Below are positions 35,301 to 63,964 of a stretch of DNA of 64,000 nucleotides, in pieces. The notes under the pieces were generated by a model that did not search any database, was not told where the DNA came from, and was given only the letters and a program-made list of their open reading frames with translations. The stretch is from sequence record PZ445440.1; one strand, 5' to 3'. A program made the position numbers and the translations under genes. Numbering within the stretch: position 1 is the stretch's first letter; every line of letters starts with the position of its first letter. This stretch comes from a phage.

Positions 35301-38012
35301 TCAAAAATCAAACATATCGAACAGAGATGCTTTCTTCTCGTAATCGAGTTTCGCTGCTGATGTGAATCCTTCAAGTGGTTTAATAAATGTCTTCTCAAGG
35401 AGAACAGTGTAGTCCATCCAATGAAGTACATCATCTTTGATTAAATCAGTGATTTCCGTACCAGAAGGCCATGCGATACATTTATCACCGAACGGGTTTC
35501 CATCACGTAAAGGCAGAACGTATACCTTTTCGCCTTCTACAACTTGTGGAGCATCAATATTACCTTTGATAGCTCGGTTATATGTCAGAATTCCACGAAT
35601 ATGGAATGGGCATTTAGGTCCTGGATATCCACCTACATCATATTTAGCAATGTTATTCGCAGAAGATACCGACGCGATGCTAATATAATTCAATTGACGG
35701 AATTCTTTTTCAAACTCTTTAAAATATTCTTGTAATGATTCTTCACCTTCTTGAAGCATACGACGAATACATTCTTTAAGAGCTTTCTGTACTGCTTTAG
35801 GGGTCGAAGATTTCTGAGTTTCTAGACCCATGATTTTGAGTTTAGGCTCAGCGTAACGAGTACCTTCCATATCCCACACGTTTAATGCATAACGTTTCTT
35901 ACCAGTCCAGAATCCACCAATACCTTTAGAACCGAGCGGAGGACCAGCGATAGCTTCTCGGTCCATGAACATTAAGTGTTGTTTATTGTTCATGTATTCA
36001 CACATTTCACGGAAACCTCTATCAATAGCAGGTTCCATACGTTCACGTGCAAACTTATCTAAGAAGTCTACCCAATGGTTGGTATCACGGAATTTAGATT
36101 CACCAACCTTATCGATAATTTTATCAGCAGATACGTAAATAGAGTCGGTATCACCATAAAGAACGAAAGCTTCACCTTCTGTACCACAAACTTCATTCAG
36201 ATATTCATTAACTTTACGTTCAATCCACTGTAAAGCCATTTGCCCAAATGTTGTGATTGCAGTAGCATTACGCAAATCATAATAACGGAACCAAACGTTT
36301 CCAAGTGCACCATAAAGTGAGTTGATAAGCAATTTACGGTTAATTTGTGCAGTCATACCTGCAACTTCAGTACGTTGAGCTCTAAACAACATTTCATTAA
36401 GAGATTTAGCAGACAACTTTTTAATCTTTTCTTTAATCTCATCACTGAAGTCGAAACGATAATCAACATCTAATGGTTCGTCAACAGAAAGATTAGGATT
36501 ATGCAATGCCTCTTTAATTATTTCACCATTACGTTGAGCTGCAAGCATGTAACCTTTATGTTCTTTACGTTGATTAAAGACCTTAGTGATTTCAGTTGGA
36601 ACTACACCATCACGGTCTTTATAATACATCATGCCGTTAGGAGAGCAACTGTACACATCTGAAGGACGTTCAGCGATTGCGTTAATATAATCATGCAGTG
36701 GAGCTACTTTAAACGTTCCTGCTATTGTTTCCGGGCTAATATTCACTTGGCGAATAATACTTGGATACAGAGATGTAAGGTCGAAACTCATTACATATTT
36801 GTATCGATTTGGAATAGGTTCCTTAACAAAAGCGCCAGGATAAGGTTGAACCGGATGAGAACGACCTTGTGGAATCACCTTGTTCTGCTCTTTAAGGCTA
36901 TTAAAAATAATAGCATCCCATGTTTTAATTGGGCTAAACACAGATTGAATCTGTATCTTAGCATAATAACCCATGTCCAAACTCAAGTTGATGAACTGAC
37001 GCTTAGCATCAATTTGCAATACACGATACACGTCGATAATGTTATAAGAAATATATCGTTGGTGATTGCTTTCACGAAGCTTAGAAATAGGGCCGTCATA
37101 TTTCAGTTTACCGACGTTCAATTCAAATTCTGAAATGTAATCCAGAGAATACGACGGTTGATTGGTAAAAGAGAATTTTTTGTAAAGGTCAATGTAATCA
37201 AGAACAGAGATACCGAACAATGTAATGATTTCACGAGAACCATACATGTTTTCGATAACTTTAACACGAGTTTTACGATGTGGTGATAAACGTTTCGCAG
37301 TAGATTCGCCAAAAATATTCTTGATTCTGTTATACACATATGGAATATCAAATGACTCAACGTTCCATCCAGTCAAAATGACAGGAGTTTTCTGTTGCCA
37401 GAAGTTGAGATATTCCATCAACAATTCTTTTTCGTTATCGAACGGCATATAAACAATTTTGTCGATAATTTCGGATGGAACTTCATCACCGCCTTGTTCT
37501 TGAAGCTTAGCAGCGATTTCAATAGACCATTCTTCTACATTACCATATGGAGAATTCAATAGATCAAATACGTAGAACCTGTCGTCAATTGAGTCATAAT
37601 GGGTGATAGCATCAATCGGATGTTTTGCTTGTGACGGCTCAGGGAACCCATCCGGAGATGTTACTTCGATGTCGAAGTTAGCCACACGAATTTTTGTATG
37701 GTCGTATTTGATTTCATAGTTATAAGTGTCAGACAAATACGCTAATTTGAAATCGTCCATGCCAAGTGCTTCAAGTCCGATATCTTCCATGCGTTTAATC
37801 CATTGTGAGGCATCACGCATATTAGCGAACAACTTACGAGTACACGGCTTACCGTAGATATCGAAATATTTCGTAGCCTGACTTTCTGGACAATGAGCAA
37901 ACAGTGATGGTTTATATTCTACTTCACGAGTACGTTCACGGCCATTAGAATCGATGTAACGTTCAAAAATTGAATCACCAATCTGTTCAACCGTTAAGTA
38001 AAATTCTTTCAT
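35301..38012 (-). CDS. 43: DNA polymerase gp43 (family B, 3'-5' exonuclease)
   Basis: 903 aa; exo motifs FDIEV, polymerase motifs DxxSLYPS and YGDTDS; sequence matches the RB69 polymerase from memory. Confidence 0.97.
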   Translation of the reverse strand: MKEFYLTVEQIGDSIFERYIDSNGRERTREVEYKPSLFAHCPESQATKYFDIYGKPCTRKLFANMRDASQWIKRMEDIGLEALGMDDFKLAYLSDTYNYEIKYDHTKIRVANFDIEVTSPDGFPEPSQAKHPIDAITHYDSIDDRFYVFDLLNSPYGNVEEWSIEIAAKLQEQGGDEVPSEIIDKIVYMPFDNEKELLMEYLNFWQQKTPVILTGWNVESFDIPYVYNRIKNIFGESTAKRLSPHRKTRVKVIENMYGSREIITLFGISVLDYIDLYKKFSFTNQPSYSLDYISEFELNVGKLKYDGPISKLRESNHQRYISYNIIDVYRVLQIDAKRQFINLSLDMGYYAKIQIQSVFSPIKTWDAIIFNSLKEQNKVIPQGRSHPVQPYPGAFVKEPIPNRYKYVMSFDLTSLYPSIIRQVNISPETIAGTFKVAPLHDYINAIAERPSDVYSCSPNGMMYYKDRDGVVPTEITKVFNQRKEHKGYMLAAQRNGEIIKEALHNPNLSVDEPLDVDYRFDFSDEIKEKIKKLSAKSLNEMLFRAQRTEVAGMTAQINRKLLINSLYGALGNVWFRYYDLRNATAITTFGQMALQWIERKVNEYLNEVCGTEGEAFVLYGDTDSIYVSADKIIDKVGESKFRDTNHWVDFLDKFARERMEPAIDRGFREMCEYMNNKQHLMFMDREAIAGPPLGSKGIGGFWTGKKRYALNVWDMEGTRYAEPKLKIMGLETQKSSTPKAVQKALKECIRRMLQEGEESLQEYFKEFEKEFRQLNYISIASVSSANNIAKYDVGGYPGPKCPFHIRGILTYNRAIKGNIDAPQVVEGEKVYVLPLRDGNPFGDKCIAWPSGTEITDLIKDDVLHWMDYTVLLEKTFIKPLEGFTSAAKLDYEKKASLFDMFDF

Positions 38013-38045
38013 TTAATTTCCTTTAGACGAGTTATTGTCTTTTGT
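38013..38045 (-). promoter_or_regulatory. candidate gp43 translational operator (RNA hairpin AGAC-AAUAACUC-GUCU adjacent to SD)
   Basis: Minus RNA AAGACAAUAACUCGUCUAAAGGAAAUUAAAUG: 4-bp stem, 8-nt loop, then SD AAGGA and the gp43 AUG. Confidence 0.45.
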
Positions 38046-38072
38046 TTGTTGGATGAACTTATTATACTCCAA

Positions 38073-38090
38073 ATGGGACCGAAGTCCCAT
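38073..38090 (-). terminator. UUCG-tetraloop hairpin between regA and gene 43 (terminator or RNA stability element)
   Basis: Plus atgggac-cgaa-gtcccat, 7-bp stem; weak U-tract; immediately followed (in transcript direction) by a TATAAT box. Confidence 0.35.
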
Positions 38091-38094
38091 TGCT

Positions 38095-38463
38095 TTAATT
38101 ACCAATTGTATATTTTGCTTTCAAAGTCCAGTCATCTTTCTGTTTAAAAGAGATAACACGGAAGTTATTAGTCAGGCTAAATAGATCTTCACGAGCAGAG
38201 TCTTCAATAACAATCAATCCCCAGTCTTCAAGCAACTGGGCAATCGAATCACGTCGCTGATAGTCTTCACCATCGATATCAACTTGACGTCCGTCCATAC
38301 GCAACATTTCTTTAAAGTGGACGATGTAGTATTTACCTTGCTTTTGGAGGATATGACAGGACTGATAAAGAACTTTATCCTTGTTATTAGCGATGCCCAT
38401 ACGGGTCAGAGTCTCTTTGACTTTCAGAAAATCTTCTGGGTTCTTCAATTTAATTTCGATCAT
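38095..38463 (-). CDS. regA: RegA translational repressor
   Basis: 122 aa from MIEIKLKNPEDFLKVKETLTRMGIANNKDKVLYQSCHIL...; matches T4 RegA from memory. Confidence 0.85.
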   Translation of the reverse strand: MIEIKLKNPEDFLKVKETLTRMGIANNKDKVLYQSCHILQKQGKYYIVHFKEMLRMDGRQVDIDGEDYQRRDSIAQLLEDWGLIVIEDSAREDLFSLTNNFRVISFKQKDDWTLKAKYTIGN

Positions 38464-38465
38464 TT

Positions 38466-39029
38466 TTACCATTCCAATGCTAATTTTTTAAATTGTTTTT
38501 GTTCTTTCACATTTTTTGTAACTTCTTTGAGAAACTCATCAGTGACCATTGCCTTCAGTTCTTTAAGGACTATTGGCAGCTTGTTATTTTTTTCAAGGAG
38601 CCGTTTATACTCGGTGGCATCATTCATGTTGATTGTGTAATGTTTCATCAACAGTTTGATAACTAGTAACTCTGAAGTGTCTTCGACTAGTTTAGCCCAT
38701 TTAGAGAATCGTCGACCACGCGGAATTGCCGCCATCATATAGTTGAAGTGCGCTTCATCACTTAATTCAGAACCGACCAAGTTCATCATGTAAACTGCGG
38801 GCATACATTCTGGAAACTGGGACAATGAGTTCTCAACCATAAATTTTGAGTAGTCGACCTGAGCAATTGACATAGATTTCTTTTCATTAATAGCATTAAT
38901 GATTTTAAAGAATTCGTTCTCAGGTTTTTCTTTAAACATGTCAGCACATTTTTGAATCGCATCAGCGTCATTAGACTTCCATGCGATTTGGTGCTCGTTA
39001 AGTTGGACGTCATCATCAAATAAGTTCAT
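38466..39029 (-). CDS. 62: clamp-loader small subunit gp62
   Basis: 187 aa (T4 gp62 187 aa as I recall); immediately downstream of gene 44. Confidence 0.8.
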
Positions 39030-49633: not shown

Positions 49634-50104
49634 TTAATCATGTTTCCACACCCCATCGGTATTTGACCAAAGTCGCTGATTATCTGATCCTCGCCACAGC
49701 TTTTTAGTCGGAAGATTTTTCTCATACTTCCCATCAATAATAACATCAACATATTTAAGCATTTCTAGTTGTTTAATATCTTCAAACTTATATCCTGTCC
49801 ACAACCAAATGCTTTTATTGGGATAAAGATTTTTTACTGTTTGAGCAATGCGATGAATAACATCTCGGTTATCAGGATAGAGAGGGTCACCTCCGGTTAT
49901 AGTTAATCCTTCTATATAATCATTATTCAAACATTCAATTAATTGTTCTAGTGTTTCACCGGTGAATGGAACACCATTTCTAGCATTCCATGTTGATTTA
50001 TTATAACACCCTTCACATTTATGCAAACAACCTGTAACGAAAAGAACGACCCTGCAACCAGGGCCATTCACAAAATCGCAAGGATAAAATCTATCATAAT
50101 TCAT
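49634..50104 (-). CDS. nrdG: anaerobic ribonucleotide reductase activating protein NrdG (radical SAM)
   Basis: 156 aa; CxxxCxxC-like cluster GCLHKCEGCYN; overlaps nrdD start by 4 nt. Confidence 0.85.
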   Translation of the reverse strand: MNYDRFYPCDFVNGPGCRVVLFVTGCLHKCEGCYNKSTWNARNGVPFTGETLEQLIECLNNDYIEGLTITGGDPLYPDNRDVIHRIAQTVKNLYPNKSIWLWTGYKFEDIKQLEMLKYVDVIIDGKYEKNLPTKKLWRGSDNQRLWSNTDGVWKHD

Positions 50105-51918
50105 TGGTGTTTAACCCTATGCATGATTTCTTTATTTTTGCCTAGATTAAATCCGCGTTCGTTTGGATTTCCCAAATAACCGCATGTTCTTCTTATTGTG
50201 TTCATCTTTTTAGGATCAGTTTCTCCGCAAACTGAACAAACAAATCCATTTTCAGTAGGAGTCATTTCATGAGTACTTCCGCATGTAAAACATTTATCTA
50301 CTGGCATATTAACACCAAAATAATCTAAATGTTGTGCAGCATAATCCCAGACAGCCTCAAGTCCTTTTAAGTTATTTTTCATATCAGGAAGTTCAACATA
50401 AGAAATGTGACCACCTGTCGCAATGAAATGATATGGCGCTTCACGAGAAATCTTTTCAAACGGAGTAATATTTTCTTCTACTGAAACATGGAAACTATTA
50501 GTGTACCAGCCTTTATCGGTAACATCTTTTACGCTTCCATATTTTTCTGTATCGAGTTTACAAAAGCGATAACAAAGGTTTTCAGCAGGAGTAGAATATA
50601 AACTAAAAGCAAATCCGGTTCTTTCAGTCCACTGTTTAAGATGAGCATTCATTTTAGTTAAAATTTCTTGTCCAATATCACGACCGACAAGAATATTCAA
50701 TTCGTGAATACCGATGTATCCCAAAGACACTGAACTTCTACCATTTTTAAATAACTCAATTATGTCATCATCAGGTTTAAGACGAACCCCGAATGCACCT
50801 TCTTGGTAAAGAATAGGAGCAACAGTAGCTTTAACTCCTTTTAAGGAACTAATTCTACACATCAAGGCTTCAAAACACAGGTCCATTCGCTCGTCGAACA
50901 ATTCAGTAAATTTCTGTTCATTGAACTGTGTTCCAATATAAGAATCTAATGCGATACGAGGAAGATTCAGTGTTACAACACCGAGATTATTACGTCCATC
51001 AAGAATTTCATTACCAGTCGAATCTTTCCATACGCTCAAGAAACTACGGCAGCCCATTGGAGAAACTGGAACTGAAGAACCGGTAATAGCTTTATTATTC
51101 TTAACCGAAATAATGTCAGGATACATTCTTTTGCTTGCACATTCTAACGCAAGTTGTTTAATATCATAGTTCGGATCATCTTTATAAAGATTAACACCTT
51201 CTTCAACAAACATAACAAGCTTAGGGAAAATAGGAGTTATTCCATCACGACCAAGACCTTTAATGCGGTTTTTAAGAATTGCCTTCTGAATCATTCGTTC
51301 AGTCCAATCGGTTCCCGTACCAAATGTAATTGTTACAAAAGGAGTTTGTCCGTTTGAACTAAAGAGAGTATTTACTTCATATTCATAAGCTTGGAATGCG
51401 TCATAGACATCTTTTTCTGTTTTAGATTGAGCATAATTCAGAATGTCTGGTATTTGCCATTTTTCTGCATCTTCAACATGTTTAGCGTATGTGCGTTTAA
51501 CATAAGGAGAAAGAACTTTATCGACATTCGCAAATGTAGTTCCGCCATACTGGTGTGAAGCAACTTGCGCGGTAATTTGTGCCATAATTGCAGTAGCAAC
51601 GCCAATTGATTTAGGAGTTTCAATCTGTGCATTACCAAGCTTAAATCCGTTCTCAAGCATTCCTTTTAAATCTACTAAACAGCAATTAGTAAATGGAAGA
51701 GCAGGAGAATAATCAATATCATGCATGTGAATGATTCCGCTTTCATGCGCATTCATAATAAAAGACGGGACCATATTTTTGGCAATGTGCTTAGACACAA
51801 TACCAGCCATAAGGTCCCGTTGAGTTGGAAAAACACGAGAATCTTTATTAGCATTCTCGTTCAAAAGATCTTTATTAGTTTTATGAATTAATCCTTCAAT
51901 TTCTTTTTCAATTTTCAT
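50101..51918 (-). CDS. nrdD: anaerobic ribonucleoside-triphosphate reductase NrdD (intron-less)
   Basis: 605 aa continuous ORF; C-terminal glycyl-radical region and CxxC zinc ribbon (CFTCGSTHEM...CSVCG). Confidence 0.9.
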   Translation of the reverse strand: MKIEKEIEGLIHKTNKDLLNENANKDSRVFPTQRDLMAGIVSKHIAKNMVPSFIMNAHESGIIHMHDIDYSPALPFTNCCLVDLKGMLENGFKLGNAQIETPKSIGVATAIMAQITAQVASHQYGGTTFANVDKVLSPYVKRTYAKHVEDAEKWQIPDILNYAQSKTEKDVYDAFQAYEYEVNTLFSSNGQTPFVTITFGTGTDWTERMIQKAILKNRIKGLGRDGITPIFPKLVMFVEEGVNLYKDDPNYDIKQLALECASKRMYPDIISVKNNKAITGSSVPVSPMGCRSFLSVWKDSTGNEILDGRNNLGVVTLNLPRIALDSYIGTQFNEQKFTELFDERMDLCFEALMCRISSLKGVKATVAPILYQEGAFGVRLKPDDDIIELFKNGRSSVSLGYIGIHELNILVGRDIGQEILTKMNAHLKQWTERTGFAFSLYSTPAENLCYRFCKLDTEKYGSVKDVTDKGWYTNSFHVSVEENITPFEKISREAPYHFIATGGHISYVELPDMKNNLKGLEAVWDYAAQHLDYFGVNMPVDKCFTCGSTHEMTPTENGFVCSVCGETDPKKMNTIRRTCGYLGNPNERGFNLGKNKEIMHRVKHQ

Positions 51919-58891: not shown

Positions 58892-59872
58892 TTATTTCAG
58901 TAAAGTTACTTCAGAGATTTCCTCCCAACCATCTTTATCAGTTGAAATAAAATCTGCTACATAAAGAGCCGTACGTAATGATACATTGCGAAGACGAGAT
59001 ACGTTAGCCTTCATCCAAGATAATGCTTTATACGTTTCTGCATCAGTCAGACCACGTTTCTGCATCATGTCAGTAGATAATATTACATCTTCAACTCGAA
59101 CCATAATCTCTTCATTAGAGTGTACTCCAAGGTCAAGATACACTGAACGAGATACTAAAGCTTGAAGGTGTGGAGCAAGTTTAGAACCGCGTTCTAACTC
59201 TTTATCGATATCAACGTTTGTAATGAAAACGATAGTACCTTCAAACTCAAATTCTTTATCGATACCCTTATCATCAAGATAAGATGATGCAGTGCTCCAA
59301 CAAACTTTGCGTTTATCACCGGTATCTAATGCGGCTTTAAGAAGGTTCAAGATGTCCATATCTGAGAATACGTCAACGTCGTCGATTAAGAGAACGCTGT
59401 CTGCATCACGGTTGAGCCAAAGTTGTTCGTAAAGGCCAATACCAGAGATTTTACCATTAATACTTTTGTATTTGATGAAACCATTATCATTAGCATTATT
59501 AAGTGCTTTATCCAGAGAATACGTCTTACCAATACCTGCTGCACCTGAAATAATGAGTGAACGAATTTTGCCATCGATAATGCCATTCGTCATCATGTTC
59601 ATTACTTTAAAGCGTTTGTTGATACGAGTTTTCATATCTTCAGTGCTTTCAATAACTGCAACTGGTGACGTCTCAACTCCTTCCATTACGATGTCTGATT
59701 TGAAGACCCATACTCCACGTTCAGAGCCATCAATCATAACGAAAATTTTACCATCACCTAAGTGGGAACATTCAGGATTAAGCTTTGCCGGGAACCATGT
59801 CTTTGTGGCAACATAAGAACCAGAGATTTCGTTATTACGATAGATACCTTTTTTGATTTGAACGTTGAACAT
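58892..59872 (-). CDS. P-loop ATPase (326 aa from ATG with GGAG SD)
   Basis: Walker A ISGAAGIGKTYS, Walker B VLLIDDVD; track start is TTG, the ATG 4 codons in has a better SD. Confidence 0.65.
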   Translation of the reverse strand: MFNVQIKKGIYRNNEISGSYVATKTWFPAKLNPECSHLGDGKIFVMIDGSERGVWVFKSDIVMEGVETSPVAVIESTEDMKTRINKRFKVMNMMTNGIIDGKIRSLIISGAAGIGKTYSLDKALNNANDNGFIKYKSINGKISGIGLYEQLWLNRDADSVLLIDDVDVFSDMDILNLLKAALDTGDKRKVCWSTASSYLDDKGIDKEFEFEGTIVFITNVDIDKELERGSKLAPHLQALVSRSVYLDLGVHSNEEIMVRVEDVILSTDMMQKRGLTDAETYKALSWMKANVSRLRNVSLRTALYVADFISTDKDGWEEISEVTLLK

Positions 59873-63142: not shown

Positions 63143-63355
63143 TTAATTTTGGCCAGTATTTATTTTTCGCCTTTGGACGGCATTAACATCTGCGAGGTAT
63201 TTTTCCAGCTTGCGCTTGCGTGTATAATCAGCTTTAGAACCAGTTTGACGGATATCCTCGTTTAAATGAGAAATAGAATGTCCTAATTCTCTTCGGATTT
63301 CATCCAATTGGGTTACAGTAAGATTACGAAGTTGTCTTTCGTTTAATTGCTGCAT
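63143..63355 (-). CDS. hypothetical protein (70 aa)
   Basis: ORF in gene array. Confidence 0.5.
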
Positions 63356-63382
63356 ATATACCTCTTGGTTAGATATTAGTAT

Positions 63383-63964
63383 TTATAACAACCCTGTCAA
63401 ATCGTTCCAATGCTTCCGGCATAATGACACATATCTATCGGTATCACCAATTTCAATTTGACTGCCATCTGTAATTGGAAGTCCGTCTTCCGTGACTCTA
63501 GCTACCATTGTGGCCTTTTTACCACAATGACAGACACCTTTAAGTTCAACAAGCTTATCGGCAATAGCCATTAATGCTTGAGAACCTTCAAATAGATTAC
63601 CTTTAAAATCTGTTCGTAGTCCGTATGCCATTACCGGCACATTGTATACGTCAACAATACGACTAAGTTGATACACCTTTTCAGTAGTTAAGAACTGAGC
63701 TTCGTCAACAAATACACAGTGAATATCCTTTTGTGCTGCAGCCCATTTATAGAATTCAAAGATATCCATGTCTTTTGTAATTATATTGGCGTCCTGACGA
63801 ATACCAATACGAGAGACTATTTCACCTTTTGAATCACGAGTATCAATAGCCGGTTTAAGAACTAATACACCCATGCCACGTTCTTTATAGTTATGTGCGG
63901 CAGTAAGTAATGAAGCAGACTTACCAGCGTTCATAGCGGCATATGTAAAAATTAAACTAGCCAT
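63383..63964 (-). CDS. tk: thymidine kinase
   Basis: 193 aa; P-loop AMNAGKSAS, Zn ribbon CHCGKKA...C; matches T4 Tk length. Confidence 0.9.
   Translation of the reverse strand: MASLIFTYAAMNAGKSASLLTAAHNYKERGMGVLVLKPAIDTRDSKGEIVSRIGIRQDANIITKDMDIFEFYKWAAAQKDIHCVFVDEAQFLTTEKVYQLSRIVDVYNVPVMAYGLRTDFKGNLFEGSQALMAIADKLVELKGVCHCGKKATMVARVTEDGLPITDGSQIEIGDTDRYVSLCRKHWNDLTGLL

Follow-up and report, generated by a model that had tools for sequence, protein, structure and literature searches.

An RB69-type gene 43 operator hairpin in the leader of a phage DNA polymerase gene

The question raised by this locus is whether a short hairpin standing immediately before the start of the phage polymerase gene is the operator through which gp43 represses its own translation, as the initial annotation had proposed for the stretch of DNA studied here (the window; 64,000 nt, record PZ445440.1). 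The identity of the gene is clear. The product of the 903-aa ORF aligns with the RB69 polymerase structures PDB 1clq/1ih7 over residues 1-903 (2093 bits), and the ORF is annotated as DNA polymerase in matching records. Upstream of gene 43 lie regA, gene 62 and gene 44, in T4-like gene order. Over the 351 bases around the operator, identity is 100% to Escherichia phage ChristianSchoenbein and 98.9% to RB69, each a Mosigvirus, and the window comes from an RB69-like Mosigvirus. By analogy with RB69 and T4, gp43 would be both the regulated product and the repressor.

In the sense of the mRNA, the site reads 5'-ACAAA AGAC AAUAACUC GUCU A AAGGA AAUUAA AUG (Table 1). The elements named in the initial annotation, a 4-bp AGAC/GUCU stem, an 8-nt loop, AAGGA and the AUG, can all be read at 38040-38010 (-), and its interval of 38013-38045 is correct, except that the feature belongs on the minus strand; the separate UUCG hairpin that it placed about 30 nt further upstream is also present, with its 3' end 31 nt from the operator hairpin. 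The operator hairpin ends 1 nt before the Shine-Dalgarno sequence and 12 nt before the AUG. Both hairpins are present in the minimum-energy fold of the 101-nt region, and when the putative 75-nt leader is folded, the four operator pairs have probabilities of 0.73-0.79. The isolated operator hairpin is thermodynamically weak, with a free energy of -3.2 kcal/mol. The operator hairpin is not an intrinsic terminator, which would have a U run behind a G+C-rich stem of 5 bp or more: its stem has 4 bp with two G-C pairs, it is followed by AAAGGAAA, and it was not called by the terminator scan. The Shine-Dalgarno sequence lies outside the stem. Since the hairpin leaves it free, repression must stem from a bound protein and not from RNA structure, and in the folding model the free Shine-Dalgarno sequence fits occlusion of this kind.

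Table 1. Features of the gene 43 leader and its surroundings, by position in the window
Feature	Position	Strand	Basis or comment
regA, translational repressor, 125 aa, upstream neighbour of gene 43	38095..38472	(-)	annotated regA in RB69 and relatives
UUCG-tetraloop hairpin AAUGGGAC-UUCG-GUCCCAUU	38072..38091	(-)	sequence, minimum-energy fold
GGAG + TATAAT, -10-like box of putative gene 43 proximal promoter	38061..38070	(-)	conserved
A/C-rich 5' leader (AUCCAACAAACAAA) upstream of hairpin	38041..38054	(-)	comparison of window with L001; 5' end putative
Operator hairpin	38025..38040	(-)	16 bases (4 + 8 + 4), forms in minimum-energy fold
Operator 5' stem arm AGAC	38040-38037	(-)	pairs with GUCU
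Operator loop AAUAACUC, 8 nt	38036-38029	(-)	-UAAC- core
Operator 3' stem arm GUCU	38028-38025	(-)	
Single-stranded 3' part of operator, ribosome binding site	38013..38024	(-)	RB69-identical; overlap per PMC3014915
Single A between stem and Shine-Dalgarno	38024	(-)	
Shine-Dalgarno AAGGA	38023-38019	(-)	
Spacer AAUUAA, 6 bases, before gene 43 AUG	38018-38013	(-)	
Gene 43 AUG	38012-38010	(-)	
Gene 43, family B DNA polymerase gp43, 903 aa	35301..38012	(-)	ORF and structure match

The published boundaries of the operator were taken from a review (Uzan & Miller, PMC3014915, section 25), which describes gp43 as an autogenous translational repressor and its operator as a hairpin together with sequence overlapping the ribosome binding site. 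According to the same source, the operator hairpin has 16 bases in RB69 and 18 in T4, the loop nucleotides -UAAC- are common to both, and the palm domain of gp43 is where the operator RNA of RB69 crosslinks (PMC3014915). Gold's account of SELEX gives the T4 operator an 8-nt loop and an overlap with the ribosome binding site (PMC4661202). Our readings match these sizes: the hairpin has 16 bases in the window and 18 in the T4 gene 43 leader (GenBank M10160). From the hairpin through the AUG no base differs from RB69 (AY303349), and the loop agrees with that of T4 in M10160 at 8/8 positions, which bears out the T4-like loop of the initial annotation. On one detail the sources differ: the 'top 10 bases' do not differ between T4 and RB69 according to the review (PMC3014915), whereas the GenBank reading gives 9/10, as T4 has a U-G closing pair where RB69 has C-G. 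Since the hairpin sizes, the loop and the identity with RB69 agree with the review, we conclude that the element is the published RB69 gene 43 operator. The comparison with the T4 and RB69 operators that had been called for thus gave a match, the published operator mapping to this same sequence and not to a different one, and the proposed autoregulatory role of the site is supported by the identity of the gene, the identity with the RB69 sequence, the review and the covariation of the stem described below. The element is an RB69-type gene 43 translational operator, already known, and there is nothing new in the element itself.

Both binding by gp43 and repression of gene 43 have been published for T4 and for RB69, whose sequence is identical (PMC3014915; PMC535899). 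Transferring these properties from RB69 and T4 to the present phage, we consider it very probable that the site is the gene 43 translational operator of an RB69-like phage. Within the leader and operator, RB69 is departed from only at 38051/38052 (-), where the window has an extra C (CAUCCAAC, against CAUCAAC in RB69) that lies 11-12 nt upstream of the hairpin; among 153 phage records that carry the gene 43 leader at 95% identity or more, the extra C is common only to ChristianSchoenbein.

The mechanism that we propose follows the RB69 and T4 systems. The weak 4-bp hairpin in the gene 43 mRNA would present the loop AAUAACUC one nucleotide before the Shine-Dalgarno sequence. Polymerase that is free of primer-template DNA would bind the loop, the stem and the adjoining 3' single-stranded Shine-Dalgarno region, and, once bound, would exclude the 30S subunit from the start site (autogenous translational repression); polymerase synthesis would thereby be held to the level that replication needs. 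As polymerase engaged on DNA would be unavailable as a repressor, synthesis would track replication demand. RNA binding and DNA binding by gp43 are mutually exclusive (PMC535899), and two accounts of the gp43 mechanism are in agreement (PMC535899 and PMC4661202).

To place the site among its relatives, we compared the leaders of gene 43 in 17 annotated Straboviridae lineages and at 54 IMG/VR loci. A hairpin with an 8-nt loop lies 9-23 nt before the gene 43 AUG in all sampled Tequatrovirus, Mosigvirus, Dhakavirus, Gaprivervirus, Gualtarvirus and Bragavirus, and at the same position in two Klebsiella-phage lineages and several uncultivated lineages. The loop consensus across lineages is AAU-N-ACUC and the stems differ (RB69 and the window: AGAC/GUCU, PSD2001: AGUC/GACU, T4: AGCCU/GGGCU, MP1: AUUCU/GGAAU, RCIP0102: AGACU/GGUCU, L027: AGUCC/GGACU, L063: GGUCU/GGACC). 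Covariation was scored in a gapless alignment (A2) of 19 distinct gene 43 leaders from T4-like phages. The inner four stem pairs are formed in 76/76 cells, with changes on both sides (compensatory) in three of the four; when the partner was slid by 1-3 columns as a control, 20-46% of cells were paired. None of 500 shuffles reached the observed covariation score, a score that has to be read knowing that many of the 19 leaders are related and that part of the signal comes from the loop-based alignment of 4-bp and 5-bp stems. Despite this kinship and the manner of alignment, pairing is kept in every lineage, and the stem appears to be maintained by selection. Within the 19 leaders, the loop never changes at positions 1, 5 and 6 and hardly at positions 2, 3 and 7, and the stem sequence varies freely. 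Among the lineages that share the structure are some with gp43 N-termini (140 aa) only ~60-77% identical to that of the window.

The region between regA and the operator contains two further elements. The UUCG hairpin starts 3 nt after the regA stop and has an 8-bp stem with four G-C pairs; on the minus (sense) strand just UUU comes after it. In the terminator scan it is called for the plus strand only, and any termination is therefore probably partial. Its equivalents in T4, MX01 and MP1 have longer U runs, the copy in Morganella phage MP1 is annotated as a rho-independent terminator, and the stem covaries across lineages (GGGAC/GUCCC, GGGGC/GCCCC, GGGAG/CUCCC, GGCC/GGCC). The hairpin looks like a terminator-like structure or a 3' stabiliser of the regA transcript, outside the operator. 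Between it and the operator, the sequence (G)GAGUAUAAU is kept in most operator-bearing lineages. In the window and in L002-L069 the spacer has the order regA stop, tetraloop hairpin, (G)GAGUAUAAU, 14-20 nt and operator hairpin; the regA-distal hairpin is G+C-rich, has the tetraloop UUCG (mostly), UACG or GAAA and is flanked by A and U runs.

A simple sigma-70 scan did not call the GGAGTATAAT box, because there is no -35 element. The missing -35 fits an activator-dependent promoter, and we treat the promoter as putative. In lineages where the hairpin is further away (L034/L049), TGCTAT is found 18 nt before the -10 box, a sequence that we take to resemble the MotA box of T4 middle promoters. 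A MotA-dependent promoter of T4 gene 43 has been reported in the regA-43 region. The gene 43 region is strongly MotA-dependent (PMC6024815). The gene 43 transcript of the window would start ~7 nt after the -10-like box, at ~38054; if so, the UUCG hairpin would be absent from the main gene 43 mRNA and hence would not be part of the operator. In T4 and RB69, the loop DNA (G/A)CTTCG lies ~19-21 nt before the -10 box, where L034/L049 have TGCTAT, and one stretch may therefore double as an RNA terminator hairpin and an element of a middle promoter. It could also be that the conserved GGAG is cleaved by RegB as one of its motifs.

A start ~7 nt after TATAAT would put the operator hairpin ~14 nt from the 5' end, a location that would suit an element serving mainly mRNA stability or processing (as protection from RNase E or other decay), for which polymerase binding would be irrelevant. 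RNase E and RegB do shape the fates of T4 mRNAs, and processing by RegB stimulates gp43 synthesis (PMC3014915). However, a protective hairpin needs no conserved loop, yet among the 19 leaders it is the loop that is near-invariant and the stem that is free to vary; 4 bp and -3.2 kcal/mol are weak for protection; and the binding of RB69 gp43 to this very sequence is published (PMC3014915). We therefore suggest that such a role is very unlikely as the explanation of the site, and it could in any case coexist with operator function and not replace the operator.

It is still less probable, and in our view hardly credible, that the site is targeted not by gp43 but by another repressor, such as RegA acting on A/U-rich initiation regions. 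Gene 43 is not known to be among the classical RegA-controlled T4 genes. The gene for RegA does lie directly upstream and the initiation region AAAGGAAAUUAAAUGAAAG is A/U-rich, and the RNAs selected by RB69 RegA are AAUAAUAAUAA-like, its targets being initiation regions free of structure (PMC3014915). RegA sites are, however, without RNA structure (PMC3014915), whereas here there is a covarying hairpin with a fixed loop, and in the window this hairpin is found only before gene 43 and not before other early genes.

For the operator reading, the specificity of the signal within the window was assessed with two covariance models. R1 was built from all 19 leaders, and R2 from the 11 leaders with 5-bp stems, so that the RB69, Dhaka and Gapriver types were excluded. 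In the 64-kb window R1 gives one operator match (38018-38047 (-), 33.2 bits), its next match, within coding sequence, scoring 13.6 bits. The sole significant match of R2 in the window is at 38019-38046 (-) (23.7 bits, E 4.7e-4), and its runner-up (15.6 bits, E 0.12) is a late-promoter/Shine-Dalgarno region without a hairpin. Over 85 kb of related loci, R1 gives 52 matches with E of at most 1.2e-3, all on the sense strand and at locus positions 348-400, that is, 1-53 nt before the gene 43 start (401). Two weak covariance matches were rejected, one at 59615-59644 (-), within coding sequence, and one at 63352-63388 (-), a TATAAATA/Shine-Dalgarno region without a hairpin.

Taken singly, the pieces are unremarkable. 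The octamer AATAACTC occurs 5 times in the window, where 4.08 copies are expected, and so shows no significant enrichment. Hairpins that combine a 4-bp stem with an 8-nt loop number 2840 on the two strands of the window. A second copy of the octamer AAUAACUC occurs at 51229-51246 (-), flanked by GAUGG/CUAUU with five pairs, two of them G-U; we judged it coincidental because it lies within a 605-aa ORF (50101..51918 (-)), far from any start. The combination of the pieces, with the comparison to relatives, is not chance. That the operator hairpin is a functionless chance structure, of a form common in AT-rich DNA, is the least probable explanation of all, for although such hairpins are numerous, the octamer occurs at the chance rate and a second AATAACTC with five closing pairs lies inside a coding region (51241 (-)), the comparative data in effect refute it: the same structure is kept at the same place before the same gene in lineages with such divergent gp43 N-termini, with compensatory stem changes, a near-invariant loop and the E-value of R2.

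The T4 gene 43 operator, which is said to go back to work by Andrake et al. in 1988, was reportedly the first SELEX target, used by Tuerk and Gold in 1990. Despite this, the operator appears to be without an Rfam model; a permissive Rfam scan of 37500-38600 had a best E of 4.1 and gave no match at the operator.

The loop is not uniform across the family. Position 4 is A in T4, RB69, MP1 and RCIP0102, C in Dhaka, Gapriver, Braga, L027, L034 and L063, and U in Clarke_MM3, L033, L051, L059 and L065; the variation was noted in leaders L003, L004, L006, L009, L027, L033, L034, L051, L059, L063 and L065 (at ~350-400). Single loop variants are AAUAACUG (L060) and AAUCACUU (L048). Such loop variation may have arisen as the loop and the RNA specificity of gp43 evolved together.

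A more divergent loop, AGCAACCU, is present at the operator position in Muldoonvirus (Serratia phages PS2, Muldoon and SP1; Cronobacter phage VP8). In PS2 (KJ025957, L047:353-382) it forms GUCC-AGCAACCU-GGAC, and the predicted fold of the leader hairpin, GUCCAGCAACCUGGAC, is a perfect stem of 6 bp capped by a CAAC tetraloop (-8.7 kcal/mol). Muldoon (MN095771, L053), vB_Cdu_VP8 (L072) and SP1 (L073) have the PS2-type hairpin with one extra G. These sites lie ~20-45 nt before the gene 43 AUG. A scan of IMG/VR for GTCC(N)AGCAACCTGGAC gave 50 matches, of which only PS2 and Muldoon are on contigs of ~167 kb (T4-like genomes). For a 16-17-mer, 50 matches would be roughly the chance level at the estimated size of the collection.

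Tuerk and Gold are said to have obtained exactly AGCAACCU in 1990 as the 'major variant' selected in vitro with T4 gp43. The SELEX variant has four changes in the eight loop nucleotides (PMC4661202) and the sequence -CAAC-, and the 2010 review asks whether any natural phage carries it (PMC3014915). The sequence AGCAACCU is consistent with both the -CAAC- (PMC3014915) and the four changes in eight (PMC4661202). Text searches of the literature for AAUAACUC and AGCAACCU returned only unrelated siRNA/miRNA papers. We found no report of a natural phage with the -CAAC- variant in the literature searched.

In all, the operator is found in Tequatro-, Mosig-, Dhaka-, Gapriver-, Gualtar-, Braga- and Klebsiella-phage lineages and, as a candidate, in Muldoonvirus. 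We lean towards regarding the gp43 operator as a much broader, evolving RNA family with lineage-specific loops, AAU-A/C/U-ACUC in the lineages described above and AGCAACCU in the Muldoonviruses of Serratia and Cronobacter. Should the hairpins of these Muldoonviruses be true operators, both SELEX solutions would exist in nature, and the RNA specificity of gp43 would co-evolve with the loop.

The RB49-type operator has the loop -UAAA- (PMC3014915); we did not recognise an operator of this type in the leader of Krischvirus FL20. Other hairpins stand at the operator position in more distant lineages and may be regarded as candidates from their sequence. Vibrio phage vB_ValM_PVA8 (KVP40-like, L015:~360-385) has CACG-UAACAACU-UGUG directly before AAGGA, an uncultivated phage (IMGVR_UViG_2974736276, L032:~350-385) has AGCC-ACAC-GGCU followed by T4-like AAUAAACUAAGGAA, and Citrobacter phage Ci1 (L014) has GAGAGGA-UGAUAGAG-UCCUCUC.

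For the phage itself, our analysis indicates that it likely regulates its polymerase as RB69 does, and the operator also serves as a check on the annotated start of the gene. The A2 alignment and the covariance model, which is specific for the leader of gene 43 across about 50 T4-like genomes, show that an Rfam model could be built. At the time of the review, no gp43-RNA complex had a solved structure (PMC3014915), and the natural loop variants, one of which would match the SELEX major variant, are test cases for polymerase-RNA recognition. We suggest that this variation at the level of the family is the only part possibly repaying further work.

Among known systems the closest is the RB69 gene 43 operator (Wang, Pavlov & Karam 1997; Petrov & Karam 2002; via PMC3014915), which has the same 16-base hairpin AGACAAUAACUCGUCU, the same AAGGA and the same spacing. 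RB69 has the same regA-43 context and a gp43 near-identical to that of the window; of the two, the window alone has the extra C. The T4 operator has the same loop AAUAACUC and is likewise made up of a hairpin and, 3' of it, a single-stranded stretch that leads into the Shine-Dalgarno sequence, and its upstream architecture, a UUCG hairpin and then GGAGUAUAAU, is like that of the window. Its stem, however, is AGCCU/GGGCU, 5 bp long and closed by a U-G pair, with a free energy of -6.3 kcal/mol, compared to 4 bp and -3.2 kcal/mol in the window, and it stands 7 nt from the Shine-Dalgarno sequence and 18 nt from the AUG, where the stem of the window is 1 nt and 12 nt away. Wang and colleagues reportedly found in 1997 that RB69 gp43 accepts either operator, whereas that of T4 discriminates against the one from RB69.

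The gene 32 operator of T4 and RB69 is likewise a case of autogenous translational repression of a replication protein, and for gene 32 and gene 43 alike the binding of RNA competes with the DNA ligand of the protein (PMC3014915; PMC535899). The gene 32 site combines a 5' pseudoknot with cooperative coating of unstructured RNA, whereas the gene 43 site is a simple hairpin for which the review gives no evidence of a pseudoknot (PMC3014915). The coat operator of MS2/R17 shares the working principle of the gene 43 operator, although its protein and RNA are unrelated. In each, a phage protein blocks translation by binding, at the initiation site, a small hairpin whose loop is sequence-specific. 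The MS2 start codon lies within the hairpin, whereas the Shine-Dalgarno sequence and AUG of gene 43 lie 3' of it.
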